From Escherichia phage muut, in the sequence record NC_052657.1: 64,000 nt of DNA. One strand, given 5' to 3'. Position numbers and translations under genes: made by a program. The stretch's first letter is position 1, and each line of letters opens with the position of its first letter. Under the pieces are notes generated by a model. That model had not been told where the DNA came from, ran no database searches, and worked only from the letters and a program-made list of their open reading frames with translations. Below are positions 45,663 to 63,663 of the stretch, in pieces.

Positions 45663-46790
45663 TTAAAACACACTTGCCAAAGTTGCACCATTGGTGATAG
45701 TTGGTTCCAGAACAATACGGAAAGAATCTTCTGGATCATCACTAAACACAACGATTTTACCGCCTGTAATAAGATCTGCTTTCATTTTTGTCGCATTCAA
45801 TGGAATTCGAGCATCGCCTTCATCATCAAAAACCACGTAAGAGCTATTAGCAAGGGCTTCTTTAGAATCTGCATCACTTGGAGATGACAAGTACACGTCC
45901 AGTGTGCACGAACCACCTAAAAAGATTGCAGGTGTGAAGTTATGCCAACTAGATACCCAGCTAACTTTCTGAAGTTTCCCATTAATAACAACACTGCTGA
46001 TATCCCATTTATTACCACCACCTAAAGAAACACCCATCATAGAGATGCATTCTTTAAAGGATAAATCAGGGTAGAAATTAAGTTCTTCTACTATACCTTG
46101 GATCACATCAAAGGACAACTCTAAACTTACATCCCAAAGTCTTTGGAAATTATCAAAGTGTGCTTTGTTATCCAGGTTTTTATCTAAATAGTCCATCATA
46201 GTTTCTAGTGAGATTTTATCATAATTAAAATTATAAAACACACGACTAGGACGATTTAAAAAGAATTCAGAGATAAAGCCACTGTTTTTAGTCAGAATAA
46301 ACAGTTTATTACCACTGCCAGTACCATCTAACAAAGTGAGAAGTGCTTCTTGATCTTGTTTCTTCTCATATACTTTATCAAATTCATCAAAAATAATCAC
46401 TGCTTTGTCTGTGATCTTGCTAATAAGTTCAATGAAATTAGCATCACTGTAGGCTTGAGTAACCATAATAGTTGGAATACCTTCTTCTACAAGGTCACGA
46501 CTAATGAGTTTGGCTAACATAGTTTTACCACTGCCCTTAGTGCCTGTCAGGAGCAAACCTGTATTTTTACCTTGTGCACTCCGGCGATGGAATGTACGAA
46601 TAACGTGATTTGCTCGTTTTTCTGTTTCACCATACAGAACATCCGGTACACCTGTTAGATTACCACGGCTTAAAAAGTAATTGCCAAGGGGATCACGACT
46701 AACAGTATAGAATCCAGGTGGAAGATAGTTAGATTCCACGCCCATATCTTTATTTACACTTACAATATCACCATAAATCGTGTATTTCAT
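45663..46790 (-). CDS. P-loop ATPase, paralog 1
   Basis: Walker A GTKGSGKT, Walker B IIFDEFDK; ~50% identical to 62498..63658. Confidence 0.6.
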   Translation of the reverse strand: MKYTIYGDIVSVNKDMGVESNYLPPGFYTVSRDPLGNYFLSRGNLTGVPDVLYGETEKRANHVIRTFHRRSAQGKNTGLLLTGTKGSGKTMLAKLISRDLVEEGIPTIMVTQAYSDANFIELISKITDKAVIIFDEFDKVYEKKQDQEALLTLLDGTGSGNKLFILTKNSGFISEFFLNRPSRVFYNFNYDKISLETMMDYLDKNLDNKAHFDNFQRLWDVSLELSFDVIQGIVEELNFYPDLSFKECISMMGVSLGGGNKWDISSVVINGKLQKVSWVSSWHNFTPAIFLGGSCTLDVYLSSPSDADSKEALANSSYVVFDDEGDARIPLNATKMKADLITGGKIVVFSDDPEDSFRIVLEPTITNGATLASVF

Positions 46791-46801
46791 TTTAACCCCT
46801 T

Positions 46802-47239
46802 TTATTTTTGTTGAGATGAACGAATTAAATCAGCAGCAAATTCAATCAGATACACTTTTGGTGCAATAATGATTTTTAGCCAATCAAAATTCGAAAAGAA
46901 AATAACAAATCCTAAAAAGAAAAAGAAAGCACAGACAACAAGACCAACAATAGGTAAAGCAGATACTTCACCATAGCGATCTCGTGACCACAGGCATTCT
47001 TTATCTTTAATTGCTTTTACGAGGTTCCGTACAGCAATAAAAGTAATAAACATAAAGCAAATACTAAAAAGTTGCCATAAACCTGCGGATACTGCTTTCC
47101 ACACTAATAATTGATGAATTACTTCTGGAATTTGTTGTTTTCCAAACTCTACAACATCACTCATTGTTTGAATAGTGACGTTAACCATGTTCAGAAGTAC
47201 ATCAGTTGCTTTATCTGCGATTGCGTTTGTTTTACTCAT
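46802..47239 (-). CDS. membrane protein (145 aa)
   Basis: GAGGA RBS; several hydrophobic segments. Confidence 0.5.
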   Translation of the reverse strand: MSKTNAIADKATDVLLNMVNVTIQTMSDVVEFGKQQIPEVIHQLLVWKAVSAGLWQLFSICFMFITFIAVRNLVKAIKDKECLWSRDRYGEVSALPIVGLVVCAFFFFLGFVIFFSNFDWLKIIIAPKVYLIEFAADLIRSSQQK

Positions 47240-47253
47240 TCTTTATTCCTCAC

Positions 47254-47427
47254 TTACCTTTTAAGGAAACCAATCATAATGAAGAACCACATCCAGGCAG
47301 GAGAGATAATAAAGCCAAAGAAACCGCAAATAACCGCTTTCTTAATCTCTTCCAGACAACCCACCAGGAAAAGAACGAGTGAGACTACAATCCAGATAGC
47401 CATAAATACTGTAACAAAGAAACTCAT
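47254..47427 (-). CDS. small membrane protein (57 aa)
   Basis: GGAGAAAGG RBS; two hydrophobic segments; plus-strand ORF here looks spurious. Confidence 0.45.
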   Translation of the reverse strand: MSFFVTVFMAIWIVVSLVLFLVGCLEEIKKAVICGFFGFIISPAWMWFFIMIGFLKR

Positions 47428-47447
47428 ACCTTTCTCCCATCTGTATT

Positions 47448-47699
47448 TTAAAATTCAACCACTACTTTATCGAGATGCTCTGCTTCAACTTGATCTAAGG
47501 TTAACACCTCAACTAAACCTTTGTCAATACCTAATTTAATAACATCAACATATTGTCCAAACAGATCCTGAATAGATATCTTGTGTTCGACAACAACCAC
47601 CACTTCATTTCCTTTTGTGAATTCTCTCCATACACGTCCACATTTGAAAATAAAGTCTGCTTCGTCTTCTGTTATCATTTTAGGTTTGATACTTAACAT
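47448..47699 (-). CDS. hypothetical protein (83 aa)
   Basis: ORF. Confidence 0.45.
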   Translation of the reverse strand: MLSIKPKMITEDEADFIFKCGRVWREFTKGNEVVVVVEHKISIQDLFGQYVDVIKLGIDKGLVEVLTLDQVEAEHLDKVVVEF

Positions 47700-48250
47700 T
47701 ATAAAACTCCGTACTCCGGCTCAAAATCATATTTTTCACAAATCATATCCCAGCGTTCGTTGCCGAAGCTGCGACCACAAATTGCATCGTAAGCGTAATG
47801 CTCTGCTAACCATTTTACAACAGTGTCTACATCGTTATCAAGTGGTAATCTGAATTCTTTGCCATATCGCATACGAAGAACAAATTCATCCCCTTCTTCA
47901 AACAAGTGCATATGGCTTTTTGCATAAGAAGCCAGGTTGAAAAAAGATACCTCTTCCCAGCATTCTTTTTCCACTGCAATCCCGTGATCAACAACTAAAG
48001 CACCGATAACGCGATACATAATAGGGCTAAACAGTGCGCTTGGGCTAGGCTGCTCTTCAACTATAGACCAACCTGTTCCCTGCCAAATTTCATTTTTGAA
48101 CCATTGTTGCATGTCATTCCCTTTTTCATCTACAATGGATCGGTTACGCATTTCAAACCATTCTCCTTCGCAAAAGTATTTATGTTTAACGCGCTTGCCT
48201 TTTAACATTGCTTCTTTGGCTTCTATCCAAGTCAGATCGGTGTTTTGCAT
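47699..48250 (-). CDS. hypothetical protein (183 aa)
   Basis: ATG with GAGAGGAG RBS 60 nt inside ORF-track ORF. Confidence 0.5.
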   Translation of the reverse strand: MQNTDLTWIEAKEAMLKGKRVKHKYFCEGEWFEMRNRSIVDEKGNDMQQWFKNEIWQGTGWSIVEEQPSPSALFSPIMYRVIGALVVDHGIAVEKECWEEVSFFNLASYAKSHMHLFEEGDEFVLRMRYGKEFRLPLDNDVDTVVKWLAEHYAYDAICGRSFGNERWDMICEKYDFEPEYGVL

Positions 48251-48369
48251 TCGTTTATCTCCTCTCATTTGTGTATGCATTAAGATTAGCACAATAAAAC
48301 AGTATGTCAATACTTGATCTGAAATTAATTTCTGGTACTCTGTGTGTATCGTAACAAAAGAGGTTAGAT

Positions 48370-48660
48370 ATGAACATCACACTAGCAACTAAGAATATTA
48401 CAGAAACTTTTGATGGTTTTGGCATTATTATTGCTGTTCATGGGCATAACGAAAAATGGTTAGCCTCTTTTGAAGAGGACAAAGAACGCAATGTACGTTT
48501 GAATGCACCAATCAAAGTTTTACACCAGGTAGGTGAGAATAAGAAACAATGGAGATCATACAAAGAGTGGAACATTACGAACGAGTTAATACACAAACTT
48601 GACAAAGTGATAAACATGTTCGACAATGCACCAAGCAGTGCAAAACGTGTTTTACTATAA
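48370..48660 (+). CDS. hypothetical protein (96 aa)
   Basis: AAGAGG RBS. Confidence 0.5.
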   Translation: MNITLATKNITETFDGFGIIIAVHGHNEKWLASFEEDKERNVRLNAPIKVLHQVGENKKQWRSYKEWNITNELIHKLDKVINMFDNAPSSAKRVLL

Positions 48661-48671
48661 AGGAGAGTGAT

Positions 48672-49025
48672 ATGAAAATTGTACACGATGAAATTCAATT
48701 TGAAGAGAGTGATCTTCTTGATCTAGATGTGACACTAAGTAAACTGATCTACAATGCACTTTCTGCATATCGTGCAAAAGTGATAGCCACAAACAATGTT
48801 AAAATTCCTAGTGGGTTACTTCGTCGGATGTACCCACACACTAAAGGTGACTATCTACCTTATATGGAAGAACGAGCAGCAGAACACTGGTTAGAAATTC
48901 TTGAAAAAATGGAGTCTTCTTTTAAGGACTCAACTCCACCAGAAGAAGTTAATGAAAAACAGCGGCAAGATCGTTTAGAAGGTCGTATTTTGTTTGCTAA
49001 GTATTTCCATAATCTGTGGATGTAA
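48672..49025 (+). CDS. hypothetical protein (117 aa)
   Basis: AAGGAGAG RBS. Confidence 0.5.
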   Translation: MKIVHDEIQFEESDLLDLDVTLSKLIYNALSAYRAKVIATNNVKIPSGLLRRMYPHTKGDYLPYMEERAAEHWLEILEKMESSFKDSTPPEEVNEKQRQDRLEGRILFAKYFHNLWM

Positions 49026-49038
49026 TAAGGAGAAAACT

Positions 49039-49206
49039 ATGAGCGAAACCAAGAAACCAATTCCGCGCACTTACCTACACGTTGACCCTGAAATCTTCAA
49101 GGTTTTATTTGCTGAAGCCAAGAAAAGGCAAATTATGGTCAGTGATTTGATGTTAGAAATCATTACTGAAGCAGCAGAGAACATCAAACAAAAAAAGGGT
49201 AAGTGA
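49039..49206 (+). CDS. ribbon-helix-helix-like small DNA-binding protein (55 aa)
   Basis: ATG with AAGGAG RBS; beta-strand then two helices pattern (TYLHVDPEIFKVLFAEAKKRQIMVSDLMLEIITEA). Confidence 0.4.
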   Translation: MSETKKPIPRTYLHVDPEIFKVLFAEAKKRQIMVSDLMLEIITEAAENIKQKKGK

Positions 49207-49257
49207 TCCTCATTCACTTTAGTAGCGCATTAAGCGTGATTTATAAGGAGATTTTTA

Positions 49258-50256
49258 ATGATTAAACATACAAAACCTTTTTTAGGAATAGATTATGACT
49301 TACTAGCAATCACTTCCCTGGTGATTAACGGCAAAACAAAAGAAGTAAAACTACACCATAAGATCATTTATTCTTATTTGTTAAGTTTATCTGGCACATA
49401 CCAAAAGGTAACACCATCTTTGAAAGGTATTGGTGAGCGGTTAGGAGTAGGTACAGATCAGACGGTACGCCGTCATATCAAAGATCTTGTTTCTTTTGGA
49501 TGGTTGAAGATTGAGGAAAGGGCAGGTAGCACAAATGCTTATATTGTCCTTCCTTATGAACAAGAAGCCCAGACACAACAAGAAGCTACTGTTAAAGCTG
49601 TTCCTGATCAGCTTCCCCCTACAGAATGGAAAATGTTTAAAAAATGGTATTCACCATCTGGTAATGAATACACCGCTACACTGCCAGCCGTTGAAATCTA
49701 TAGCTATATAGCTGGATTCAATGAACAAGGGCAAGAATGTTACGCTACTCAAAAAACATTAGCTAATATTGGAATGGTTAGTGATCGTCAGGTACGCAAT
49801 ATTATAAATATGTTTGTTGATATGGGAGTTCTTTCTGTAGAGACACGCCACGGTCAAACATCACTCTATAAAGCATTACCCTTTACAGAGATGAATGTTA
49901 AAAAGCAAAAAAGAGTAAAAGAAATTCCGTACACCGAAAACCAACAATCAAATTGGTGTTTTTATATACAAAAATTGGTTTCTCCGTTTTATACCTGCTT
50001 GAAAGCAGGGATTACGGTAGATATTGATCGTAGAATCAAAGAGCAAAGTAAAAACAGCATGTTTAAGCATTATCTACTTGACAGTTTCAGTGGAGATTAT
50101 GCTACTATTTTCGCTTTGGAGAAAGAAGTTAAAAAATGTTTTAACCGCTCTTTATGCTTAAAAGAGTGGCTACCGGATGGATATACAGAAACATATAATC
50201 TAGAAGATTATGAAAATATAAAAAATTTTGTTAGTGAAAAATTGATTAAGGAGTAA
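49258..50256 (+). CDS. winged-HTH protein with C-terminal T5orf172/GIY-YIG-like domain
   Basis: Two wHTH-like segments; C-terminal LKAGITVDIDRR...DGYTE. Confidence 0.4.
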   Translation: MIKHTKPFLGIDYDLLAITSLVINGKTKEVKLHHKIIYSYLLSLSGTYQKVTPSLKGIGERLGVGTDQTVRRHIKDLVSFGWLKIEERAGSTNAYIVLPYEQEAQTQQEATVKAVPDQLPPTEWKMFKKWYSPSGNEYTATLPAVEIYSYIAGFNEQGQECYATQKTLANIGMVSDRQVRNIINMFVDMGVLSVETRHGQTSLYKALPFTEMNVKKQKRVKEIPYTENQQSNWCFYIQKLVSPFYTCLKAGITVDIDRRIKEQSKNSMFKHYLLDSFSGDYATIFALEKEVKKCFNRSLCLKEWLPDGYTETYNLEDYENIKNFVSEKLIKE

Positions 50257-50258
50257 AC

Positions 50259-50408
50259 ATGGTTATCTACAAAAATAAGTTCACTGGCTGTCTGCGTAAA
50301 TTTATTGACAAAAAAGGGTATGTTTCTGTTGACAATGGTGTTACGTGGGTACAAAATGGCACTTCAGAACAACTGATCAAGGCTTTACCTTACTATGAGG
50401 AGGTTTAA
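50259..50408 (+). CDS. small protein (49 aa)
   Basis: ATG 2 nt after upstream stop; fills gap to next gene exactly. Confidence 0.4.
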   Translation: MVIYKNKFTGCLRKFIDKKGYVSVDNGVTWVQNGTSEQLIKALPYYEEV

Positions 50409-50732
50409 ATGTCCAACAATCTGTTTAGCGTGTCAATTGCACCGCGTGTTAATATTCGCTGTCAGTTTGTTAACTTACCAGGTGTGACACATATCACTTT
50501 AGAGTATGATCCTCGTTCACAAGAGAACCCAATTACAGGCAAGATTGATTCAGCCTACGGCGACTTTCTGATGGATCACCAAGCAATCTTATGTTGTGTG
50601 CAACGCTTACAAGCAGGGTCTTTATACATCTTCAAGAAATCTGTGTTCCAGGAGATTGCTCAAGCGGTTGAGAGTGGTATGGAAACACTTAACAACATGA
50701 TCGAAGCCGCTAACAAAAAGGAGGTTTTATGA
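50409..50732 (+). CDS. hypothetical protein (107 aa)
   Basis: GAGGAGG RBS. Confidence 0.5.
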   Translation: MSNNLFSVSIAPRVNIRCQFVNLPGVTHITLEYDPRSQENPITGKIDSAYGDFLMDHQAILCCVQRLQAGSLYIFKKSVFQEIAQAVESGMETLNNMIEAANKKEVL

Positions 50733-50986
50733 CACTTTATCATGTAACTACCGAAGGTGATTGCGAAGGTCGTACCACAAAAGATTTAGGGTATGTCGAA
50801 GCAGATTCGCCTGAACATGCAATTAAGTATCTGCACTCTATTGGTAAGTATGCTTATTATGAATATTATATCCATGAAATTGAGGAAAATCCTATACAAG
50901 TAGCAACACCTATGGTAGAGTTGGAACATCTTAAAGCAAAAGTTAAAACTGGCAGCACATCTGGATTTAAGGGGGTAGTACAATGA
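50729..50986 (+). CDS. hypothetical protein (85 aa)
   Basis: AAGGAGG RBS. Confidence 0.5.
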   Translation: MTLYHVTTEGDCEGRTTKDLGYVEADSPEHAIKYLHSIGKYAYYEYYIHEIEENPIQVATPMVELEHLKAKVKTGSTSGFKGVVQ

Positions 50987-51252
50987 AAATTCGTGATAAT
51001 ATTGCAGACTACATTGTAACTTGTGAAGATGGTACAGACGTTTTGCTTCCGCAACCAATTGTTTGGGAGGATGGTGAAATGTACCGTATAGCTACGGAAC
51101 ATTATAAAGGTATTGACATTAAAGCTCTTTGTGCTATGCTTGTCGAAGATCAAGAATCTGATCTCTCAGTTGTAACATATCAAGATGTGTATGAAATCTG
51201 TGAAACTTTACTACAAATGCATGAAGATGGACAAGAGGTGTTTCCAAAATGA
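50983..51252 (+). CDS. hypothetical protein (89 aa)
   Basis: ATGA overlap. Confidence 0.5.
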   Translation: MKIRDNIADYIVTCEDGTDVLLPQPIVWEDGEMYRIATEHYKGIDIKALCAMLVEDQESDLSVVTYQDVYEICETLLQMHEDGQEVFPK

Positions 51253-51449
51253 CAGAATGGGTAAAAGTAGAAGACCCATACGATATCCCACTAGGTGAGT
51301 ATGTGGTGGTAATGGAAGATGGTGGAAAAGGGTATTGTGAAGTGCATAAAAGTATGTCTGGTAAGATTATTGTGGTGAACCATCATTTTCACTTTGATTA
51401 CCCTCCTATTGTGGCATATATGCCTTTACCTAAATATGAAGGGGATTAA
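51249..51449 (+). CDS. hypothetical protein (66 aa)
   Basis: ATGA overlap. Confidence 0.5.
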   Translation: MTEWVKVEDPYDIPLGEYVVVMEDGGKGYCEVHKSMSGKIIVVNHHFHFDYPPIVAYMPLPKYEGD

Positions 51450-51596
51450 ATGTTATTCTTTAGACTTAATATTGCTTTTTGTTTGTTTGCAAACATTGCA
51501 TTCTGGGTATTGGGTAGTGTAAAATTAGGCTACTTCTTTATTGTACTACAAGCTATTTGTTTAGCTGGTCAAATAATCACTAAGGGGCGAGTATGA
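51450..51596 (+). CDS. small membrane protein (48 aa)
   Basis: ATG directly after upstream stop; hydrophobic; stop overlaps next ATG. Confidence 0.4.
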   Translation: MLFFRLNIAFCLFANIAFWVLGSVKLGYFFIVLQAICLAGQIITKGRV

Positions 51597-52021
51597 CACA
51601 ACAAATCCAAGATAAATTTAATGAACTCTATCCAGCAAGCGAAAGCGGCACTCATAACGTGCGTAAATCGCTCTATAACGTCTTTAAAGCAGGATGGGAG
51701 GCTTGCCTTCAGGCTCAAGAAAAACCAGTGTCAGGGACGCGTAACGGCTTTTATATCCCGATTGTTGAAAGTGAGGAAGGATGGGGTAGCAAACATGATG
51801 GTTATATGGTAGGATTCACCATAGAAGATCTTGAAGAACGCCGTAAAGTCTTTGAGGCAGCTAATACAGAAAAGTATGGCTACTATTATGAACGACCTGT
51901 TCGTTACATTCCTGTTGTGCTTAGTCCTAAAGCTGTTGAAACAATGTCTGCAACAGAAAAAGAAAGGACTCGCCATTGTGTATGGTTTGATGATATTGAC
52001 GATTTTCGATTTGGAGAATAA
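51593..52021 (+). CDS. hypothetical protein (142 aa)
   Basis: AAGGGG RBS. Confidence 0.5.
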   Translation: MTQQIQDKFNELYPASESGTHNVRKSLYNVFKAGWEACLQAQEKPVSGTRNGFYIPIVESEEGWGSKHDGYMVGFTIEDLEERRKVFEAANTEKYGYYYERPVRYIPVVLSPKAVETMSATEKERTRHCVWFDDIDDFRFGE

Positions 52022-52024
52022 TTT

Positions 52025-52297
52025 ATGAAAAATAAACACCCTTACTATCAACTATTGCATGTACTGCGCCGATTGCGCAATAAGCAGATTGAAGATTTCC
52101 GTCACTTCAAGCGTGATCGTGTGAATCGTCAATGGATGGATCATCGTTTCTTCTCTTTAACTGTACGTAAGTTCCGTGAAGAGATTAAGAAGACAGACCA
52201 GGTAATTGCAGGTGCTAAACGTGCAATCTCTATGTCAAAAATCACAGGTGTAAATCATATGTACGACTTCAAAACAGATTCTGTTGTACCTATGTAA
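52025..52297 (+). CDS. hypothetical basic protein (90 aa)
   Basis: GGAG RBS. Confidence 0.5.
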   Translation: MKNKHPYYQLLHVLRRLRNKQIEDFRHFKRDRVNRQWMDHRFFSLTVRKFREEIKKTDQVIAGAKRAISMSKITGVNHMYDFKTDSVVPM

Positions 52298-52326
52298 AAG
52301 TATTTTGTAAAGTTTTGTGGAGAGTA

Positions 52327-52433
52327 TTGACTTTTTCAGAAAAACATGCTACCCTAAACCTGAAAGGTGACGAGCGAAGCGAGTTAGTATTCTCTATAGA
52401 TATTGTTCCTGTCACTCATGGAGGGGCAGGAAC
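52327..52433 (+). promoter_or_regulatory. conserved element copy B: promoter-like box plus stem-loop
   Basis: TTGACT-17-TACCCT inside the shared 18-mer AAAAACATGCTACCCTAA, GAGCGAAGCGAG box, GTTCCTG...CAGGAAC hairpin. Confidence 0.4.
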
Positions 52434-52461
52434 AGAGTATATTACTGTATAGGAGAATACT

Positions 52462-52728
52462 ATGGATGTTACTACACTAAGGTTTATACTTCTCTTCTTA
52501 CTTATAGTTATAGGTTTAATTGTTATACCATATCTATATGTCTACATGTTATCTCGTAAGTATGGTTATGATCGTATACCATTTTACTATTTAATACCTG
52601 TCTTAGTTATCTATCTATTTCTCTTTTGTAGATATTGTCCTGAACTAGTTCCTGAACACTGGAAGTTAGAACCTGTTGAAGTTTACCATTGTGAATGGAA
52701 GACAGAATACAGATCTAACAGTAATTAG
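52462..52728 (+). CDS. membrane protein (88 aa)
   Basis: GGAG RBS; two TM-like segments. Confidence 0.5.
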   Translation: MDVTTLRFILLFLLIVIGLIVIPYLYVYMLSRKYGYDRIPFYYLIPVLVIYLFLFCRYCPELVPEHWKLEPVEVYHCEWKTEYRSNSN

Positions 52729-52731
52729 TTA

Positions 52732-52760
52732 TTGACTCTATCTACTAAATAATCTAGACT
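52732..52760 (+). promoter_or_regulatory. sigma70-like promoter
   Basis: TTGACT-17-TAGACT. Confidence 0.45.
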
Positions 52761-52788
52761 CTATGTAAAATTTACTAAGGAGACTACT

Positions 52789-52953
52789 ATGCAAAACATT
52801 TCTATCACTAAAACAAAAAGATCTGTACCTAAACTTACTCACTCTACATATCCTGTTATCATCCGTAAAGGAAAAGAATGGATTAAAGATGATCATGGTG
52901 GTTATGTAGAAGTGTCAAAGCTGAAAGAAGCAGAAGTTAACTTTGTACGCTAA
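52789..52953 (+). CDS. small protein (54 aa)
   Basis: AAGGAG RBS; below ORF-track cut-off. Confidence 0.45.
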   Translation: MQNISITKTKRSVPKLTHSTYPVIIRKGKEWIKDDHGGYVEVSKLKEAEVNFVR

Positions 52954-52963
52954 GGAGTAGATT

Positions 52964-53245
52964 ATGACCGAAGAATTTAAGCAATGGTTTGATAAAACCT
53001 TCCCACCACATATGTGGCCTAACGAAGAAGAACGTCAAGAAGTGATGATCTACACTTGGCTTGCTTGGCGGGATGGTATCCGTAGCAAAGAAGCCCAGGA
53101 AGAGGAACCTATTGCTTACATCTTTAAACATCCAGCAGGTAAGTTGTTTTGGGCTTTAACAGATGAAAGTAATAAAGATCACAATGATGTTATTCCTGTG
53201 TATGCCAAGAACAATGTAAAGGATCAATCAGATGATAATGTATAG
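52964..53245 (+). CDS. hypothetical protein (93 aa)
   Basis: AAGGAG RBS. Confidence 0.5.
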   Translation: MTEEFKQWFDKTFPPHMWPNEEERQEVMIYTWLAWRDGIRSKEAQEEEPIAYIFKHPAGKLFWALTDESNKDHNDVIPVYAKNNVKDQSDDNV

Positions 53246-53564
53246 CATATGGGGTAGAATGGGCGAAGACCATGATTACTATTGTTTGAAAAGTAATGTT
53301 GAACAGACAGATGTTGATAAAATCATAAAGCACTACCTGAAAACATGGCGTGAAGTGGAGTTTAGAGAGTTTGCTATCCTCCATAGTCAAGAAGGAGAAA
53401 AGGAGATAGACATGAGTACACTAACTAAAGCAGTACAAACGCATAAAGAATATGAGGAAGCAGTTAAAGATGAAGTAAACCACGAGGATCAACTATACAA
53501 AGATATAAAGAGTGGTTGTGGGAACAAATTCGTTGTGGTAAAATCACTCTTGAGGGTTTGTTAG
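53232..53564 (+). CDS. hypothetical protein (110 aa)
   Basis: AAGGA RBS. Confidence 0.5.
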   Translation: MIMYSIWGRMGEDHDYYCLKSNVEQTDVDKIIKHYLKTWREVEFREFAILHSQEGEKEIDMSTLTKAVQTHKEYEEAVKDEVNHEDQLYKDIKSGCGNKFVVVKSLLRVC

Positions 53565-54077: not shown

Positions 54078-54098
54078 TAAACCAATAAGGAAAATATA

Positions 54099-54622: not shown

Positions 54623-55099
54623 ATGTCTAAACGTTTTGGTCGTAATCAAAAAAGAAAGTTAAGTGCTCAACTAGCAGCTTTGCAAAAAGAGGTTAACACT
54701 TTACAAAAAAGTGTTTGTGAACTTAAGGAACAAAACCAACTTGAAAAAGAGTGTATCCAGCTTACACAGGAAGTTATTGGTGAGTATTTTCCTTCACTAG
54801 TTCCTAAGAAGGTGGCTCTTAGGGAAAATCTACCTTTTACCTTGTCCTTGATGCAAGCAAATAATAGATTCCAAACTGAAACTGATGATTTGATGTTTGC
54901 AATGCATCAATTACATGGTTTAGAATATACAGCACAAGTGGATAAACTTCGTAACATGTTATATGTGCGGGTAGAAACACCTAAAGGTGAGACAGTAGCT
55001 TTTAATTATAATTTCCAACAGCTACCTGATCATATTATTGAACAAATTTTAAAACGAGATTTTGTTCCTATGCTTGTTAAACAAATTAAGAGAGGTTGA
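54623..55099 (+). CDS. hypothetical protein with coiled-coil N-terminus (158 aa)
   Basis: GGGGGA RBS. Confidence 0.5.
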   Translation: MSKRFGRNQKRKLSAQLAALQKEVNTLQKSVCELKEQNQLEKECIQLTQEVIGEYFPSLVPKKVALRENLPFTLSLMQANNRFQTETDDLMFAMHQLHGLEYTAQVDKLRNMLYVRVETPKGETVAFNYNFQQLPDHIIEQILKRDFVPMLVKQIKRG

Positions 55100-55100
55100 A

Positions 55101-57875
55101 ATGGCTAAGAAAGAGTTGAGCTTCACTCCAACAGAAGAGCAAACAGCTATTAAGGAGGCTTTTCCAGACCATCGCTTTTTAACTATCCAAGCTAAATCTG
55201 GATCAGGCAAAACGTCAACACTTTATTTGCTGGCTAACAGTACAGAAGATCGCATTCTTTACTTAGCTTTCAATAAAAGCATGGCAGAAGAAGCACGACG
55301 TAAGATGCCACCAAATGTAGAATGCCGTACATTGCATTCTATTTGCTATCAATTCCTGGATCATCGTTTACGTGCAAAACTGTCACGACCAGAAGGACAG
55401 TATGTTAACGTTGCAGGTACAGGTAGTGAGATAGCAAAGAAATTTAAGATTAATAATCTTATTGATAAACGAGGGAAAACACTTTTAACTCGTGCCATGA
55501 TTGGTTTAATGATCAAGCAAACAGTAGGTAAGTTTGAATTTTCGGATGATCCTTTTATCAGCCGTAAACATTTTCCTAGTGTACATCTTGCAGATATTAA
55601 AAGAAAAGGTATTAACGAACACAAACTAATTACAGAAGTAGTTAAGTATGCAAAACAATTGTGGCGAGAGCGCATTGATCCTAATACAGATACTTTGATG
55701 ACGCATGACACCTATGTAAAATTGTTTGAATTGTCTGGTGCTGATCTTGGTTATGATATTATTTTTGGTGATGAATTCCAGGATGTTAACCCTGCATTCT
55801 TGTCTATTTTGCGAAATGCTAAATCTGCAAAACAAATTGTGGTAGTTGGCGATGAATTCCAATGTGTGTCAGAAAACACGGTACTTAATACCGAGAATGG
55901 TCAGGTTACAATGAAAGACCTGCAAATCGGTGATAAGGTAGAGTCTTATTCTAATGGTAAAGTTACATTTAGAAAAGTAACAAATAAAACTTTATCTACA
56001 CGTACAAAAGGTAGGAATATTATTACTACTAAAGGTAAAACTTTAGATATGACACATAATCATCGTATTTGGGCTTCACCTTATGTTCTGAAAGATGATC
56101 AAATGGTGGTATATCTAATGTGGAGGAAAGATTTAGGTTTCCGAGTAGGAATTACTAACAAATTCGATGATAAAGAAGGTTTTTCTAAACTGGGGCAACG
56201 TACACGTTCTGAAAAAGCACAGAAATTATGGGTGTTGGATATTGTTGAAAATCGCGAAGCTGCTATGGAAAAAGAAATGGCATACAGTTTACAATATGGC
56301 ATTCCTACTTGTGTATTTGAAGCAAGTTCACGCGGCATTAATCAAGAAAGGATCAATAACATCTTTGAACAATTCGGACAAAATGGTTTTAAACTTTTAG
56401 AGGATAAAGATTATCATTTTGCTTATCCACACTGGCACAGCATCAATTGTGCAGTAGATGAAAGAAAAATGCTAACAGTGACTTTGCGAGCACAAGGTTG
56501 TAAAGGAACACAAGTTAGTTTTGAGTGGACAGAAAGTGAAATGCCGATCTATTCTTCACTGATTAAAGCAGGTGTAAGCGTAAGTGCTGCTAAATTGGAA
56601 GGTCGTTACCGTGTACGTAAATATTTCAATTCTTATCGTGAAGCATTGAGTTTTGCACAAAAGATCCTTGAAATAGTTCCGTTTGCATCTTTAAAAGAAT
56701 GCATGTCCTCTGTGAACAGTGCCAAATATAACTTAATTCCGGCAGCGGGTTTGTTTAAAGGCATGTCTGTGTTGGTAAAAGATGGTGATACTGTAACGGC
56801 AGAAGAGATTGTGGACATTGTAGATAGTGAGGGTATCTATTATGATATTGAAGTAGAGGATACTGCTAACTTCTTTGGCAATGAAATTCTTAGCCACAAC
56901 TGCATTTATCAATTTAGAGGTAGCTCTAATATGATGATTGAAACAGCTAAGTATGGGGCAGAACTTCCATTAACTGCTTGCTTCCGTTTTGGCCCCAAAG
57001 TGGCAAACATTGCCAATATGATTTTAAGCGATAAAGAACCTTTGCGTCATCCTTTGGTTGGTAAAGGCTTTGATACTGTAGTAGGTAGCTACAAATCAGA
57101 TGTTGTAGACTATACAAAACCTTACACTATCATCTTTCGCAAGAATTTAACCTTGCTTATGGAGGCAATGGATCGTATTGCAGATGGGGAAGAAATTATT
57201 ATTAACGTAGATACCAGGGATTTTATCTCTATGGTAGATAGTGTTAATGCTCTTCGGAGAGGAGATATTGAGAAAGTAAAACATGAAACTGTATTACCTT
57301 ACGCAGACTGGGATGAATTTGTTGAGTGTGCAGAGGCTGATCCAGATGCTAAACGCTTGTTAAACATCGTAGTTTCTGGTAAGGCGAACACTATAGCACA
57401 TACACTTAGAACGCATAGAAATTCTCCTACAGCAAAAGTCACACTTACTACAGCACACAAGTCTAAAGGTTTGGAGTGGGATCAGGTTATTGTTGCTAAT
57501 GATTTTCCTTCCAACTATGATAAAAAGACTGGTGAATGGGTAGGACTGGAAGAGGCAGAGCGAAACCTACTGTATGTAGCGCATACCCGTTGTGTTAAAT
57601 GCTTACAATGGAACACAACCGTACAGGAGATTATAGATATCAATCGTGTTGCAACAGAGAAAGTACCAACAAGCACCACTTTACCGATCAATGGTATTAA
57701 ACTTGGTGTATTTGGCGCTGGCACATCTCGAAAAACTGTAGAAAAATTTGTTGCAGATTCTTTTGATGGTAACTATAATCATGCACAAGCATATGAGAGT
57801 TGGCTAGAGGAAGGTGAAGGTGATTTCTTAGGTGAAATAAATCTTTTACCAGACATAAATAAACTGGTAAACTAA
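55101..57875 (+). CDS. UvrD/Rep-like SF1 DNA helicase interrupted by an intein (precursor 924 aa)
   Basis: Walker A SGSGKT; motif II FGDEFQD; motif III VVVGDEFQ / CIYQFRG split by the intein; motif V/VI TTAHKSKGLEWD, YVAHTRC. Confidence 0.75.
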   Translation: MAKKELSFTPTEEQTAIKEAFPDHRFLTIQAKSGSGKTSTLYLLANSTEDRILYLAFNKSMAEEARRKMPPNVECRTLHSICYQFLDHRLRAKLSRPEGQYVNVAGTGSEIAKKFKINNLIDKRGKTLLTRAMIGLMIKQTVGKFEFSDDPFISRKHFPSVHLADIKRKGINEHKLITEVVKYAKQLWRERIDPNTDTLMTHDTYVKLFELSGADLGYDIIFGDEFQDVNPAFLSILRNAKSAKQIVVVGDEFQCVSENTVLNTENGQVTMKDLQIGDKVESYSNGKVTFRKVTNKTLSTRTKGRNIITTKGKTLDMTHNHRIWASPYVLKDDQMVVYLMWRKDLGFRVGITNKFDDKEGFSKLGQRTRSEKAQKLWVLDIVENREAAMEKEMAYSLQYGIPTCVFEASSRGINQERINNIFEQFGQNGFKLLEDKDYHFAYPHWHSINCAVDERKMLTVTLRAQGCKGTQVSFEWTESEMPIYSSLIKAGVSVSAAKLEGRYRVRKYFNSYREALSFAQKILEIVPFASLKECMSSVNSAKYNLIPAAGLFKGMSVLVKDGDTVTAEEIVDIVDSEGIYYDIEVEDTANFFGNEILSHNCIYQFRGSSNMMIETAKYGAELPLTACFRFGPKVANIANMILSDKEPLRHPLVGKGFDTVVGSYKSDVVDYTKPYTIIFRKNLTLLMEAMDRIADGEEIIINVDTRDFISMVDSVNALRRGDIEKVKHETVLPYADWDEFVECAEADPDAKRLLNIVVSGKANTIAHTLRTHRNSPTAKVTLTTAHKSKGLEWDQVIVANDFPSNYDKKTGEWVGLEEAERNLLYVAHTRCVKCLQWNTTVQEIIDINRVATEKVPTSTTLPINGIKLGVFGAGTSRKTVEKFVADSFDGNYNHAQAYESWLEEGEGDFLGEINLLPDINKLVN
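55863..56900 (+). mobile_element. intein (346 aa) with central endonuclease-size insert
   Basis: Begins Cys (CVSENTVL), block B TLDMTHNH, ends ...FFGNEILSHN followed by Cys+1; in frame. Confidence 0.7.
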
Positions 57876-57885
57876 GGGGGTTAAA

Positions 57886-58137
57886 GTGGCAGGGTATCAT
57901 CTGAAGGAGATTAGCAAAGAGGAATATGGTTCTGTTGCTAAGATTCAAGAAGAGCTTTATGAACTTCAGGATGCTATTGATCAAGATTGCAAGCTGATGC
58001 AACTTATTGAGTTATCAGATATTGTAGGCGCTGTTGAAGGTGTTCTTGAACAGCATTTTCCTGATATGACGCTTCAAGATTTGATCACTATGTCGAACAT
58101 TACTAAACGTGCATTCCGCAATGGAGGTCGCTCATGA
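57886..58137 (+). CDS. MazG-like all-alpha NTP pyrophosphohydrolase (83 aa)
   Basis: GTG start with AAGGGGG RBS; EE..S...IQEELYELQDAI...LSDIVGAVEGVLEQ pattern. Confidence 0.4.
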   Translation: MAGYHLKEISKEEYGSVAKIQEELYELQDAIDQDCKLMQLIELSDIVGAVEGVLEQHFPDMTLQDLITMSNITKRAFRNGGRS

Positions 58138-58706
58138 ATGTTGAAGTAATAGCTCAAGCTATTGATTACTATGGTCGGTTTGCACAAATGTTGGAAGTTC
58201 CATATCTCGTGGATGCTGATATACTGGCGTACACACTACCAGAAAATAAAGAGGATCGCCCATTAGGGCATCCTAACGGTAAATATTATGTAGCCAGTGC
58301 AGAACAATCTTTCCTGCAAATGGAGAAGGATGGTTTTGAATTTGCAGCAGGTAATCCTTATATGGCACTAACACCATGTTACCGTACAGAAGAAAATTTA
58401 GATGATACTCATTTTAATATTTTCTTGAAATTGGAGTTGATTGAGTTCTATCCTGATGCTACAATTGAAGAGTATGCTAACTCTATGCGCTGTTTCTTCT
58501 CTACTTACTATGGAGTTAAAACATATTTAGTACCCACTAATATTGGGGTTGACGTAGAAGATGAATATGGTTTAGAATTAGGTTCATTCGGTATAAGGGA
58601 GTCTCCAAAAGGTCATCCTTATATCTATGCAACAGGTATTGCGGAGCCTAGGGCTTCACTGGCAATAAACCGTGTTGTAAATAAGATTCAAAGCATTAGC
58701 AAATAA
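58134..58706 (+). CDS. hypothetical protein with weak class II ligase-like motifs (190 aa)
   Basis: GGAGG RBS; CYRTEE and GIAEPR segments only. Confidence 0.4.
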   Translation: MNVEVIAQAIDYYGRFAQMLEVPYLVDADILAYTLPENKEDRPLGHPNGKYYVASAEQSFLQMEKDGFEFAAGNPYMALTPCYRTEENLDDTHFNIFLKLELIEFYPDATIEEYANSMRCFFSTYYGVKTYLVPTNIGVDVEDEYGLELGSFGIRESPKGHPYIYATGIAEPRASLAINRVVNKIQSISK

Positions 58707-58718
58707 GAGGAGAATAGA

Positions 58719-59153
58719 ATGTCTATTGTGACACAAATGAAAGCAGATCGTATCTTAGCACGTACAACCGATAAGGGTGCTTTTGCTTTGTTAACTAATA
58801 TTATTGGTGAGTTTGACCTTGCTCGTACTCAAAAGGCAAATCTAAATAAATCAGAAGATGATATTATGATTAACATTGTTAAGATTGGTATTGCACACGC
58901 TAAAGAGGAACTAGACTCGCTTAAGAAAGTTAATGCCTCCATTAGCAAATGTGAGCGAGCTATGCGTGATATCACCATTCTGGAAAAATATTTGCCAGAA
59001 ATGCTATCTGAAGATGATCTTCGAGCTATTGCTGAAGAATTTGCCTTGACAGGCAAGAAAATGCCAGATATGATGAAACACCTTAAAGCAGAGTATCCGA
59101 ATCAATATGATGGAAAACTTGCTTCTACCATTGCAAAAGAAATTTTAAACTAA
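58719..59153 (+). CDS. GatB/YqeY-domain protein
   Basis: LEKYLPEMLSEDDLRAIAEE and DGKLASTIAKEIL match the YqeY family pattern. Confidence 0.65.
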   Translation: MSIVTQMKADRILARTTDKGAFALLTNIIGEFDLARTQKANLNKSEDDIMINIVKIGIAHAKEELDSLKKVNASISKCERAMRDITILEKYLPEMLSEDDLRAIAEEFALTGKKMPDMMKHLKAEYPNQYDGKLASTIAKEILN

Positions 59154-59170
59154 TTTAGAAGGAGAACATA

Positions 59171-60121
59171 ATGATTGCATTTTACGCTAATAAACTGGAA
59201 GTTAAAAAAGCAGCAGAAGAGATGGGTATCCTGCATATTCTTAACGAAGCAATTCACAAGAGTTTTGGTTACACAACTGAAGCAGAAATCAATGATCTGA
59301 TTCACAGTGTTAATGATTTGTTCTTCTACCCTAACTTTCTACAGCAGTTAGATGGTTGTGGATTTGAATATATGGAGCTTCATCCTGAATATACATTTAT
59401 GGAAGTAACACCTGAAGGTTTTCTGGAGATTATTCGTACTGAATATCTTGCTAAAGAGGATAAAGAAAAAGATATGGCTGAAAAAGTACAACTGACTGTG
59501 CATAATACGTGTTTCCTGGATACTGAGGCCACGGAAGAAAATATTAATTATCTGCTTTCCGTTTGTAATCCTCGTTGTCCACAACCACATTGGAAAAATG
59601 CAGATCATTATCTAATGTATTCAACTGAAGAAAACATTACTTTCTTCGATGAAAACAGTGGTATTAATGGTGCACATAAGAATTCTCCATATAGGAAAGA
59701 TCGGTTTGTAGTTGATGTAAAAACATTTACTAAACTGTTTGAGGAGTATTATTCAAAAAATGAAAGTAAGACTGAATCTTCACCAAAACCACGTTTTCGC
59801 CGACCGCGTAAACCTGTGCCTACTCGTTCTGTAAGTTATGTTCGTATCATTTACACTACGCAGCAGGTATATACTCTTAAGAACGTAAGCACTCTTACTG
59901 TACAAGAAGATGTAATTAATATTGTGCGTAATAATGTTATTACAGAGGGTATTGAGGAAAAGATTATGTCTGTTATCGATCCTAAACTTGTTATGGCAAT
60001 CATTATTAATGAACCAAAAGGTGTAACAACATTGTTCCGAAATATTCATGGTACTTGGGAAACTCAAGTTGACGGTTTGACTTCTGACGGTTGTACACGT
60101 ATTACCAAAAACCTTGACTAA
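59171..60121 (+). CDS. hypothetical protein (316 aa)
   Basis: AAGGAG RBS. Confidence 0.5.
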   Translation: MIAFYANKLEVKKAAEEMGILHILNEAIHKSFGYTTEAEINDLIHSVNDLFFYPNFLQQLDGCGFEYMELHPEYTFMEVTPEGFLEIIRTEYLAKEDKEKDMAEKVQLTVHNTCFLDTEATEENINYLLSVCNPRCPQPHWKNADHYLMYSTEENITFFDENSGINGAHKNSPYRKDRFVVDVKTFTKLFEEYYSKNESKTESSPKPRFRRPRKPVPTRSVSYVRIIYTTQQVYTLKNVSTLTVQEDVINIVRNNVITEGIEEKIMSVIDPKLVMAIIINEPKGVTTLFRNIHGTWETQVDGLTSDGCTRITKNLD

Positions 60122-60169
60122 GATCAAGGACAATCTTACGAAAAAGATTTAAAATAAAGATCCACCCTA

Positions 60170-60198
60170 AAGCCAGCTTAATGCTGGCTTTTATTTTC
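60170..60198 (+). terminator. rho-independent terminator
   Basis: AAGCCAGC-TTAAT-GCTGGCTT then TTATTTTC. Confidence 0.55.
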
Positions 60199-60210
60199 CA
60201 CGGAGGATTA

Positions 60211-62010
60211 ATGACCCAAAAACTATATGAGGATGTAATCGGATTCCTCGAACAAACATCCGAAGAATTTACTCGTGAAAATGCAAACAAACCTGCAATG
60301 ATTGTTAATACTCACCGAGACTTACTAGCAGGTATCCTAAGCAAGCACATGGCAATGACCCATATTTTACCGGAAGATCTAGCAGAATGGCATAAAAGTG
60401 GGTATGGTCACATTCACGATTTAGATTATTTACTCTCACCTCTAACTAATTGTTGCCTGGTAAATTACCAAGATATGCTTGAGAACGGTTTCCGTATTGG
60501 TAATGCACATATTGAAAAACCAAAATCTATTGGCGTAGCAACTACTGTCCTAACTCAAATTATTCAAGCAGTAGCTTCTAGCCAATATGGTGGACAAACT
60601 TGTGCACATATTGATACTGGGCTTAGTCAATACGTTAAAGCAAGTTTTAACAAAATATATGCCGATGTTGGCGATTATGATATTGCTATGCGTATGGTAG
60701 ATAAACAGGTTTACGATGCAATGCAAACTTTAATCTACCAGGTGAACACCCTAATGAGTGTAAATGGTCAGTCACCTTTTATAACAATTAGTTTAGGTTT
60801 GGATACCTCTGCTTTTGGTAGAATGATCACTAAAAACTACCTAATGGTGCACAAACAAGGATTAGGAAAAGATAGGGTAACTCCTGTGTTTCCTAAAGTT
60901 ATCTTCTTCTTGGAAGATGGTGTTAACATGAAAGCTGGCGATCCAAACTATGATTTGAAGCAACTGGCAATGGAGTGTTGTGCTGAACGCATTTATCCTG
61001 ATTTTATCTCTGTACCTTTAAACAAAGAAGTTACAGGATCTTCAGATGGTCGCGTCACAAGCATGGGTTGCCGTAGTTTCTTGTCATACTATGCAACAGA
61101 GCAAGGTGAAAAATATGATGGTCGTTTCAATTTAGGCGTAGTTTCTTTAAACTTACCTATCATTGCAGCAGAGTCCCGTGAAAAGGGCATCTTATTTACT
61201 GAACTGTTGGAACAACATATGGAGATGGCGTATAAGGCACATATGCTACGTGTTAACCGTATTAGACATACCAAAGCATCTCAAAACCCTACATTGTTTA
61301 TGGAAGGGGCTTTAGCTCGACTAGAAGCTAATGAAGAGATTGGTAAACTATTCGAAGGTGGTTATGCCTCTATTAGTATCGGTTATGTAGGTTTAGCAGA
61401 AGCTATGGAGATTTTATACCCAGGTAACACCAATCCAAAAGCAATGGGTAAAAACATCCTTCAATATATGAAGGATATCTGTGGCACATTTAAAGAACGT
61501 TCTGGTTTAGCTTTTAGTTTGTATGGAACACCAGCAGAATCCTTGTGCTATAAATTTGCCAAAGCATTAAATGATCGCTATCCTGGTTCTATTGATCGTG
61601 ACTACTTGACAAACTCTTTCCATCAACCTGTGTGGATGCACACTACCCCGTTCCAAAAGTGGGATTATGAGGAAGGTTTTGCACAAATCAGTAATGGTGG
61701 GAACATAGGTTATGTAGAAACACCAAACCTTAAAAATAACTTGCAAGCACTGGAAACTCTTGTAGATTATGCCTACAACAAAATTCCTTATTTTGGCGTG
61801 AACCAACCTGTAGATCAGTGTTTCAAATGTGGTTTTCATGGTGAATTTAAGGCAACAGCTAAAGGCTTCGAGTGTCCAAGTTGTGGCAATCATGAGGAAG
61901 AATCTATATCTGTAATCAGAAGAGTGTCAGGATATCTTTCTGCCCCTAACTCTCGCCCTTATAATAAAGGTAAAATGCAAGAGGTATTAGAAAGGGAGAA
62001 ACATTTTTGA
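60211..62010 (+). CDS. nrdD: anaerobic ribonucleoside-triphosphate reductase (class III)
   Basis: ATG with GGAGG RBS; C-terminal glycyl-radical motif RVSGYL and CxxC...CxxC zinc site. Confidence 0.9.
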   Translation: MTQKLYEDVIGFLEQTSEEFTRENANKPAMIVNTHRDLLAGILSKHMAMTHILPEDLAEWHKSGYGHIHDLDYLLSPLTNCCLVNYQDMLENGFRIGNAHIEKPKSIGVATTVLTQIIQAVASSQYGGQTCAHIDTGLSQYVKASFNKIYADVGDYDIAMRMVDKQVYDAMQTLIYQVNTLMSVNGQSPFITISLGLDTSAFGRMITKNYLMVHKQGLGKDRVTPVFPKVIFFLEDGVNMKAGDPNYDLKQLAMECCAERIYPDFISVPLNKEVTGSSDGRVTSMGCRSFLSYYATEQGEKYDGRFNLGVVSLNLPIIAAESREKGILFTELLEQHMEMAYKAHMLRVNRIRHTKASQNPTLFMEGALARLEANEEIGKLFEGGYASISIGYVGLAEAMEILYPGNTNPKAMGKNILQYMKDICGTFKERSGLAFSLYGTPAESLCYKFAKALNDRYPGSIDRDYLTNSFHQPVWMHTTPFQKWDYEEGFAQISNGGNIGYVETPNLKNNLQALETLVDYAYNKIPYFGVNQPVDQCFKCGFHGEFKATAKGFECPSCGNHEEESISVIRRVSGYLSAPNSRPYNKGKMQEVLEREKHF

Positions 62011-62477
62011 ATTACGCCGGATATGAACCTGTTGACATGCTCAACGGTGACGGTGTAAGATGCTCTTTGTGGGTGAGCGGTTGTAGCCACGGTTGCCGTG
62101 GCTGCTTTAACCAGAAAGCCTGGTCGTATAACTACGGACAAGAGTTCACTACTGAAACATTAGATCTTATCTTGAAAGATTTATCTCGACCTTTCATTAA
62201 AGGATTAACAGTTTTAGGTGGTGAACCTCTTGACAAAGAGAACATTGACACTGTAGCGTATGTTCTTGAGAAGGTAAGAGATTGTTTTGGAAACAAAAAA
62301 GATATTGTCTTATACACAGGATATCTTTTTGAAGAAATTCCAGAGAAAATTAAAAAACTGGTTGACATAGTGATAGATGGTAAGTATGATATGAATCAAC
62401 CAACAACGAAACGTTATAGAGGCTCAGATAATCAACGAATGTGGGTTAAGAAAGACAACATTTGGGAATCTGACTAA
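62007..62477 (+). CDS. nrdG: anaerobic RNR activating enzyme (radical SAM)
   Basis: TTG start overlapping nrdD stop; MNYAGYEPVD N-terminus; cysteine cluster CSHGCRGC. Confidence 0.85.
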   Translation: MNYAGYEPVDMLNGDGVRCSLWVSGCSHGCRGCFNQKAWSYNYGQEFTTETLDLILKDLSRPFIKGLTVLGGEPLDKENIDTVAYVLEKVRDCFGNKKDIVLYTGYLFEEIPEKIKKLVDIVIDGKYDMNQPTTKRYRGSDNQRMWVKKDNIWESD

Positions 62478-62497
62478 ATTAAATAGAGGAGAAAACT

Positions 62498-63658
62498 ATG
62501 TTTACAGTATTCGGCAATCAAATCTTCCTGCGTCAGAAATCTGGTACAGATATTGAAGAAATTCCAGCAGGAACTTTTGGTGTAGGTGTTACTCAAAGTG
62601 GTGAGTTCTTCCTGTATCCTAAAAACGATATGGAAGTGCCTTCAGTAACATACGGTGATACTGATGATAAATCAGAACGTATTATCAAAACGTTCCTTAG
62701 CCGCAAAGGTAAAAACACAGGTGTTCTCCTTGAGGGTACGAAAGGTAGCGGTAAAACTTTGCAAGCTAAAATGCTGTCTTCTGCTCTTCGTGAAATGGGT
62801 ATTCCTACTATTTCTATCGGCAGTGCTTTTAATGGCGAAGGTTTTATCAATTTTATGTCTAAAATCACACAACCTGTGATGATTATGATCGATGAATTTG
62901 ATAAACTGTATGCTGAAAAAGATGCACAAGATGGTTTGCTTACCCTGTTGGATGGTGTTGGTGGCTACGACAAACTGTTTGTATTGACTAAAAATGATGG
63001 TTATGTATCAGAATTTTTGCGTAATCGTCCTAGCCGTATTTTCTACAGTTTTAGCTATAAGAAACTACCTAAAGCTACTATGGATGATTATCTGGCTAAA
63101 AATCTGGAGAACAAAGCCTTCTTACCAGATTTTGAAACGCTTTATAATCTCTCCGTGGATTTGAACTTTGATATTGTTCAGTCATTAGTAGAAGAACTTA
63201 ACCGTTACCCTAATGACAAATTCTCTGATGCACTTGCATTGATGGGTATCAGTATTACTGAACACCGCTATGCTGCAAAAGAGGTTAAACTTCTGAAAGT
63301 TAACGGTGTAGATCGTACAGGAGATGTTTCGTCAGATACCGATATTGACGGTATGACAGCACAAGGTTTGTTTAGCGGTAATCGTTATGTTGTAGCTGTA
63401 GACCATAAACTAGGTGAAGAGCATCTTCCTGAAATGGAAGGGATTGTTACCGTAGAAGATAAAGATGAAGAAGGTGACTACTACTGGGGTGTAGACCGTA
63501 TCTTGCTAACGTATGATGAAAAACACATTCGTACAATGGGTGGTGACGGTTATCACTTTATGTTCACCGATGATAAAGGTAACAACATTGAAGTTGTTAT
63601 TAAAAACAAAGAACGTAAAAACTACACAGAGTATGTGTTTGGTGGTCGTTCTTACTAA
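62498..63658 (+). CDS. P-loop ATPase, paralog 2
   Basis: Walker A GTKGSGKT, Walker B IMIDEFDK; paralog of 45663..46790. Confidence 0.6.
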   Translation: MFTVFGNQIFLRQKSGTDIEEIPAGTFGVGVTQSGEFFLYPKNDMEVPSVTYGDTDDKSERIIKTFLSRKGKNTGVLLEGTKGSGKTLQAKMLSSALREMGIPTISIGSAFNGEGFINFMSKITQPVMIMIDEFDKLYAEKDAQDGLLTLLDGVGGYDKLFVLTKNDGYVSEFLRNRPSRIFYSFSYKKLPKATMDDYLAKNLENKAFLPDFETLYNLSVDLNFDIVQSLVEELNRYPNDKFSDALALMGISITEHRYAAKEVKLLKVNGVDRTGDVSSDTDIDGMTAQGLFSGNRYVVAVDHKLGEEHLPEMEGIVTVEDKDEEGDYYWGVDRILLTYDEKHIRTMGGDGYHFMFTDDKGNNIEVVIKNKERKNYTEYVFGGRSY

Positions 63659-63663
63659 GTGAT

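Follow-up and report, generated by a model that had tools for sequence, protein, structure and literature searches.

The closest described counterparts of the genes considered here are the classic-clade AAA proteins, of which Bcs1, a heptameric ring that translocates a folded substrate, is the nearest with a known structure, together with the pairs Pex1/Pex6 and Yta10/Yta12, in which a duplicated classic AAA motor has been kept and the accessory domains have diverged. Our subject is a pair of ATPase genes in Escherichia phage muut (NC_052657.1), a phi92-like phage of the genus Justusliebigvirus, from which we analysed one stretch of 64,000 nucleotides (the window, in whose numbering all positions are given). 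The two open reading frames (ORFs), ORF-A (45663..46790, minus strand, 375 residues) and ORF-B (62498..63658, plus strand, 386 residues), are divergently transcribed, stand 15.7 kilobases (kb) apart and encode, respectively, an A-type and a B-type AAA ATPase of the family PHROG 2376. It is the retention of a duplicated motor alongside diverged accessory domains that A and B share with Pex1/Pex6 and Yta10/Yta12; unlike those pairs, they are not adjacent and belong to a family in which a single copy is usual in related phages. The likeness to Bcs1 is limited to the fold of the AAA module. We think that A and B are probably ancient, specialised paralogues, namely phage-specific remodellers of the classic AAA clade that act on different clients, and in what follows we set out the evidence for this reading, together with the points that count against it.

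Neither gene is new to the databases. A is the orthologue of phi92 gp221 and of Bas60_0109, and B of phi92 gp190 and Bas60_0075; the two phi92 proteins share the note ‘putative ATPase or Zn metalloprotease’, and in Bas60 (phage PaulScherrer) A is annotated as an “FtsH-like protease” and B as a “hypothetical protein”. The papers on rV5 and phi92 make no mention of either gene.

A first-pass annotation had described the two as diverged P-loop ATPases in opposite orientation with about 50% identity over their length. Both reading frames are indeed found at exactly the coordinates and on the strands that it claimed, and each of the motifs that it named (GTKGSGKT, DEFDK, LLTLLDG, NRPSR and VEELN) occurs in A and again in B. 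In a BLASTP alignment spanning residues 3-256 of A and 2-253 of B, 119 of 254 positions are identical (47%, with 70% positives; E 2e-81), which is a similarity far beyond chance that reaches well past the Walker motifs. The identity claimed thus holds for these ~254 residues and is overstated for the proteins as a whole (~37%), since the C-terminal 119 residues of A and 133 residues of B fall outside the alignment and this last stretch of ~120-130 residues is only ~17-22% identical, the higher value coming from a forced global alignment. Profile–profile comparison of the C-terminal domains with hhalign does nevertheless relate them, both directly, the A clade matching the B clade with E 3.5e-5 and 17% identity across 100 columns, and by way of an intermediate clade of 368-residue proteins, which matches A with E 6e-7 and B with E 1e-8; in AlphaFold2 models, moreover, the predicted secondary-structure elements follow one another in the same order in both C-domains. 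On the strength of these profile matches and this shared order, A and B are paralogues over their full length, with C-domains that have diverged almost beyond recognition.

The description of both proteins as P-loop ATPases can be refined to membership of the classic AAA clade, with PF00004 (AAA) scoring 38.9 bits in A and 29.4 bits in B against a gathering cut-off of 21.2. In A, the motor comprises Walker A at G83-T90, Walker B at D135/E136, sensor-1 at N169, arginine fingers at R180/R183 and a lid motif, F227-D228...E235-E236-N238; in B, the corresponding elements are Walker A at G80-T87, Walker B at D132/E133, sensor-1 at N166 and arginine fingers at R177/R180, and the Walker sequences of both proteins read GTKGSGKT and (I/M)(F/I)DEFDK. 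An alignment of 65 members of PHROG 2376 contains 25 invariant columns, among them (in A numbering) G83, G86, G88, K89, D135, E136, N169, R180, P181, R183, F227, D228, E235, E236 and N238. When phmmer was run against the sequences of the PDB, the best match was the D2 module of p97/Cdc48, in which “ATN...LRPGR” is aligned with “TKN...NRPSR” of A, at positions occupied in AAA proteins by sensor-1 and by the pair of arginine fingers in the second region of homology (SRH). The position of pore-loop 1 (residue 114 of A) carries an aromatic residue, Y or F, in 115 of 118 members.

Comparison of folds leads to the same clade. One fold search returned Bcs1, Trip13, NSF-D2, 55LCC, YjoB, FtsHi, Rix7 and NVL as its top structural matches; the other, made with Foldseek against the PDB, returned Bcs1, Rpt, YjoB, FtsH and NSF, with Bcs1 as the best match of the AAA+ module of B (E 3e-8). 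The distance is considerable, of course, with only ~15-20% identity to classic-clade proteins of known structure, and A and B differ from these in having none of their flanking domains, be it BCS1_N, the M41 peptidase, the double-psi barrel or the OB ring; for BCS1_N, there was no Pfam match either in the whole proteins or in their isolated N-domains.

Both proteins match the PHROG 2376 profile (“ATPase”, 363 positions) along almost their entire length, A over residues 1-367 (E 8.4e-108) and B over residues 1-376 (E 5.8e-104), and a structure search of BFVD likewise gave full-length matches to phage proteins of PHROG 2376. The AlphaFold2 models (mean predicted local distance difference test score, pLDDT, 83 for A and 88 for B) each contain three domains, with a five-stranded beta fold in residues 1-45, the alpha/beta core and lid of the AAA module in residues 56-255 and a beta-rich region in residues 260-370. 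In A, these are predicted to be a small N-terminal beta domain (residues 1-55; 46626..46790, minus strand; five strands from E3-6 to E38-43, pLDDT 80-91), an AAA+ module with a helical lid to which the motifs above map (residues 56-255; 46026..46625, minus strand) and a beta-rich C-terminal domain (residues 256-375; 45666..46025, minus strand; strands within E261-364, pLDDT ~80-86). B is modelled in the same way, with an N-terminal beta domain that aligns with that of A (residues 1-55; 62498..62662, plus strand; pLDDT 84-96), an AAA+ module with lid that is delimited by PF00004, the invariant columns and Foldseek (residues 56-253; 62663..63256, plus strand) and a beta-rich C-terminal domain (residues 254-386; 63257..63655, plus strand). 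Residues of the A N-domain that are conserved throughout the family include G7, P24, G26, L40, P49, Y53 and G54. Pfam searches with the isolated N- and C-domains of the two proteins gave no match (for the B C-domain, none above noise). PHROG 2376 thus has a defined three-domain architecture, in which a highly conserved motor is coupled to a diverging C-terminal domain. As a separate observation, residues 201-291 of A (~45918..46190) have a weak phmmer match (E 8e-4) to the influenza A NS1 effector domain in several PDB entries, which is probably due to chance.

Both genes are under strong purifying selection. The ratio of non-synonymous to synonymous substitution rates (dN/dS) between A and B themselves, which had been suggested as a check, is uninformative because synonymous sites are saturated (third-position identity 43%; proportion of synonymous differences, pS, 0.70), and orthologues were compared instead. 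A is 99.7% identical to its orthologues in phi92 and PaulScherrer, from which it is separated by 18-23 synonymous changes and 1 non-synonymous change; for B, the identity is 98.7-100%, with 7-30 synonymous and 0-5 non-synonymous changes, and dN/dS lies between 0.01 and 0.04 for both genes. In the much more distant Klebsiella phage FKP3, where the identity of the orthologues has fallen to 71-75%, the N-terminal and AAA parts together retain 82% (A) and 87% (B) identity, against 79% for the neighbouring UvrD helicase and 35% to 79% for other neighbouring proteins; the C-domains retain 58% (A) and 42% (B). Judged by these identities, the motor of A and B is among the best-conserved proteins of the region and, taken together with the low dN/dS, its conservation indicates that both copies are functional. 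Relatives in which the orthologues are down to 65-75% identity have likewise kept both copies. The earlier suggestion that these are functionally specialised copies is therefore supported, in that catalytic residues are kept, selection is purifying, the copies are retained jointly and the difference between them is mainly C-terminal.

The distribution of the family adds a historical dimension. PHROG 2376 includes, besides phi92 gp190 and gp221, the putative ATPase of phAPEC8, GAP32_367 and the ATPase of Salmonella phage 7-11, and most of the phages concerned have one copy, in contrast to the two of Justusliebigvirus and some uncultivated relatives. Among the records listed by tblastn, every Justusliebigvirus has two places; those of Phapecoctavirus, Citrobacter phage Tr1 and phiWec179/phiWec181 have a single A-type copy with 64-71% identity to A, and one place is found in GAP32-like jumbo phages, Herelleviridae, Lactococcus phage 949, Staphylococcus phage 6ec and crAss-like phages, as well as in Aeromonas, Salmonella and Proteus phages of ~90-100 kb. 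Phapecoctavirus nepoznato, which is syntenic with muut in this region, has A but lacks B at precisely the place that follows nrdG. B orthologues with 55-75% identity also occur on metagenomic contigs of ~150 kb; the lengths of these contigs match those of contigs with A-type proteins, which suggests that both copies are present on some of them. In a neighbour-joining tree of the 256 conserved residues, the A clade groups with the B clade to the exclusion of the jumbo-phage clade; bootstrap values are 98% for the A clade, 100% for the B clade and 80% for B with the 368-residue clade. We favour an old duplication as the origin of the pair, to judge from these sequences, with the A type as the ancestral syntenic copy, because it is the only type in Phapecoctavirus and related genera, and with B as an extra copy that would have come to lie after nrdD/nrdG.

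How might such a pair work? Since arginine fingers act only across subunit interfaces, we infer that A and B each assemble into a ring. Each ring would spend ATP to remodel, unfold or disassemble protein clients at an early or middle stage of infection, by a mechanism common to both that would reside in the conserved N domain and motor, and the diverged, acidic C-domains, possibly with a contribution from the N-domain, would steer A and B to different clients or partners, which would amount to subfunctionalisation. Several points weigh against this picture. The proposal of different clients follows only from the divergence of the C-domain, which on sequence grounds appears to be without recognisable relatives outside its own clade; indeed, a search of 1.84 billion representative proteins with the C-domain of B returned B-clade proteins only. 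The pore-loop-1 segment is short, shorter than that of threading unfoldases. The aromatic is followed by S-D in A and by N-G in B; the canonical aromatic-hydrophobic-Gly motif is thus missing from A, and threading cannot be taken for granted as the mechanism. The sister grouping of A and B has a bootstrap of only 65%, which makes for no more than moderate support of a duplication within the lineage, and over 253 conserved columns the mean identity between A and B (46.5%) hardly differs from that between A and the jumbo-phage proteins (46.8%) or between B and the latter (45.8%). Finally, literature searches found no study of the A and B genes, and the family is without a characterised homologue.

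Other functions have to be weighed against that of a pair of remodellers with different clients, and one that the surroundings of the genes bring to mind is DNA replication, in which A and B would be AAA+ proteins of the helicase-loader kind, clamp-loader-like or initiator-like switches, or regulators similar to Hda. The genes do lie among those for a UvrD helicase and NrdD/NrdG, with primase and polymerase downstream in FKP3, and there are weak profile matches to a phage clamp loader (phrog_168, 1e-8), to DnaC-like loaders and to Hda (TIGR03420, 3.9e-7). We nevertheless consider this unlikely: the scores for loaders, clamp loaders and Hda are far below curated cut-offs (29.8 against 194.8 bits for Hda and 19.9 against 200 for IstB; the RuvB profile scores 19.8 against a cut-off of 299), and the two-arginine SRH (RPxR) and the top structural neighbours are features of the classic clade. 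All three domains carry a net negative charge, which on composition would argue against a DNA-binding role, and Pfam searches with the isolated domains detected no winged-helix or DNA-binding domain. Nor is any functional neighbour common to GAP32, Aeromonas LAh_6, Bacillus Deep Blue and muut, so that the replication neighbourhood is not conserved in distant phages. It is unlikely, too, that A and B co-assemble into one hetero-oligomeric ring after the manner of Pex1/Pex6, Rpt1-6 or Yta10/12. Such an arrangement would agree with the far better conservation between A and B of the N domains and the motor, which form the ring interfaces, than of the C-domains, and with the occurrence of both copies in every clade member examined, but Phapecoctavirus and all other lineages manage with a single copy, and the two genes are 16 kb apart in divergent units rather than adjacent. 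The FtsH-like zinc metalloprotease of the database annotations for phi92 and the BASEL phages is barely credible. Peptidase_M41 (PF01434) matches neither A nor B, and all of 118 family members lack an HExxH motif, for which reason the labels “Zn metalloprotease” and “FtsH-like protease” are unsupported; the C-terminal domain of ~120 residues is modelled as beta rather than as the helical M41 fold, and the N-terminus is predicted to be a soluble five-stranded beta domain (pLDDT 80-96) rather than transmembrane helices, although no dedicated transmembrane predictor was run. A role as a defence-system ATPase was also considered and discarded, the PADLOC matches being at noise level (the best, to mad8, had E 3.6e-4 and 18 bits and covered the P-loop region only).

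The remaining alternatives concern the arrangement and history of the pair. The first-pass annotation had raised the idea that A and B are recombination substrates, that is, an inverted repeat through which homologous recombination could invert the intervening 16 kb. The sole support for this is that homologous genes lie in opposite orientation, and its probability is close to nil. With the DNA of A and B compared in coding register, the longest identical run is 16 nucleotides, and the best blastn segment is 69% identical over 241 nucleotides; an inverted-repeat search gave no pair of arms that links the two genes. A megablast search with positions 44000-64000 of the window against 50,697 phage records found 48 records, including Escherichia phage arall, Justusliebigvirus alia, PaulScherrer (Bas60) and phi92, that cover at least 80% of the query as one collinear place on one strand at 97-98% identity, and FKP3 keeps the same divergent orientation with ~16.8 kb between A and B, its proteins being as distant as stated above. 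No opposite orientation was seen among these relatives, and since they keep the divergent arrangement we reject recombination and inversion. The view that inverted paralogues are unusual was likewise too strong, because the opposite orientation of A and B follows from their positions in divergent units on either side of a transcription switch at 48311..48369. Defined by the strands of the ORFs and by a change of sign in the GC skew (the relative excess of G over C) at ~48 kb, this switch separates a leftward gene block, which contains A, from a rightward block, which contains B, and the same divergent switch is present in phi92, PaulScherrer, FKP3 and nepoznato; a scan for promoters and terminators around it showed no enrichment over shuffled sequences. 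A more serious proposal, which bears on origin alone and does not conflict with functional specialisation, is that B was acquired horizontally from another phage lineage with PHROG 2376 and inserted after nrdG. We see this as possible, if rather less than probable. The near trichotomy of identities given above speaks for it, as do the absence of B from the otherwise syntenic Phapecoctavirus site, the presence of B at the same place in FKP3 without nrdD/nrdG, which suggests a modular region, and the occurrence of the related 368-residue clade (“B2”) in a different gene context. The sister grouping of A and B in the tree, for all its modest bootstrap, speaks against it; so does the still detectable homology of the C-domains of A, B2 and B, when the jumbo-phage C-domain matches that of A over 62 of 119 columns (E 3.7e-6) and that of B barely (E 0.0013). 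In addition, no donor closer to B than A is was found among the 50,697 phage records or among 5.8 billion proteins. An old duplication within the lineage is thus the origin that we continue to favour.

The wider neighbourhood has features of its own. Beside A lie the genes for a NADAR-domain protein and a CapR/T5orf172 homing endonuclease, and beside B lie nrdD and nrdG. The endonuclease gene (44398..45588, minus strand; CapR, zinc-finger and T5orf172 domains; phrog_681) is directly downstream of A, and its product shares no more than 65-78% identity with the versions in phi92 and PaulScherrer, against 97-100% for flanking genes, a pattern of sequence divergence that looks typical of a mobile homing-endonuclease allele. 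The NADAR-domain gene (43846..44397, minus strand; PF08719, E 5e-36), labelled a YbiA-like N-glycosidase in BASEL, ends the leftward block that contains A. To the right of the switch, a 332-residue ORF with HTH_36 and MUG113/T5orf172 (GIY-YIG-like) domains (49258..50256, plus strand) looks like a free-standing homing endonuclease by its domain content; phi92, PaulScherrer, FKP3 and nepoznato have no such gene here, and all that it matches in them, weakly, is the C-terminal portion of the other endonuclease.

Further along the rightward block, the UvrD/Rep helicase ORF (55062..57875, plus strand, 937 residues) includes an intein, as annotated in PaulScherrer; the helicases of FKP3 and nepoznato are without this insert, and only residues 606-935 align with them. 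With the listed TTG start it overlaps the ORF before it; relatives are annotated with a start slightly further downstream. The nrdD gene (60181..62010, plus strand) is one uninterrupted ORF of 609 residues, as it is in PaulScherrer; in phi92 and in Phapecoctavirus nepoznato it is in two pieces with an insert between them, and FKP3 has neither nrdD nor nrdG at this site. A 316-residue protein (59171..60121, plus strand) is called “ribonucleotide reductase” by PHROG 15930 and in phi92, a label that looks unsupported: it has no Pfam match and shares only 35-45% identity with the corresponding proteins of FKP3 and nepoznato. Lastly, the phi92 RefSeq entry places a ‘hypothetical tRNA’ inside gp190, on the opposite strand; since ARAGORN detected no tRNA anywhere in the 64-kb window, this feature is probably spurious.

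What, then, does the pair mean for the phages that carry it and for its family? Both genes already carry an ATPase annotation in phi92 and its relatives, and the pair is genuine but ordinary; the outcomes are mostly corrective, in that a protease label proves unsupported, a recombination idea is dropped and a three-domain architecture is defined. However, a single copy of PHROG 2376 is found in phages of many groups unrelated to each other (jumbo phages, Herelleviridae and crAss-like phages among them), and a natural A/B pair in tractable E. coli phages (phi92, BASEL Bas60 and their relatives) is a handy system in which to approach the function of the whole family. A more speculative idea, which we rate as rather doubtful, is that PHROG 2376 represents widespread, unrecognised phage AAA remodellers with a Bcs1-like motor, in which the C-domain would target host complexes and the duplication would serve two targets or a hetero-oligomeric ring. 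If this were true, the fast-evolving C-domain could serve the takeover of the host or the dismantling of its defence assemblies.

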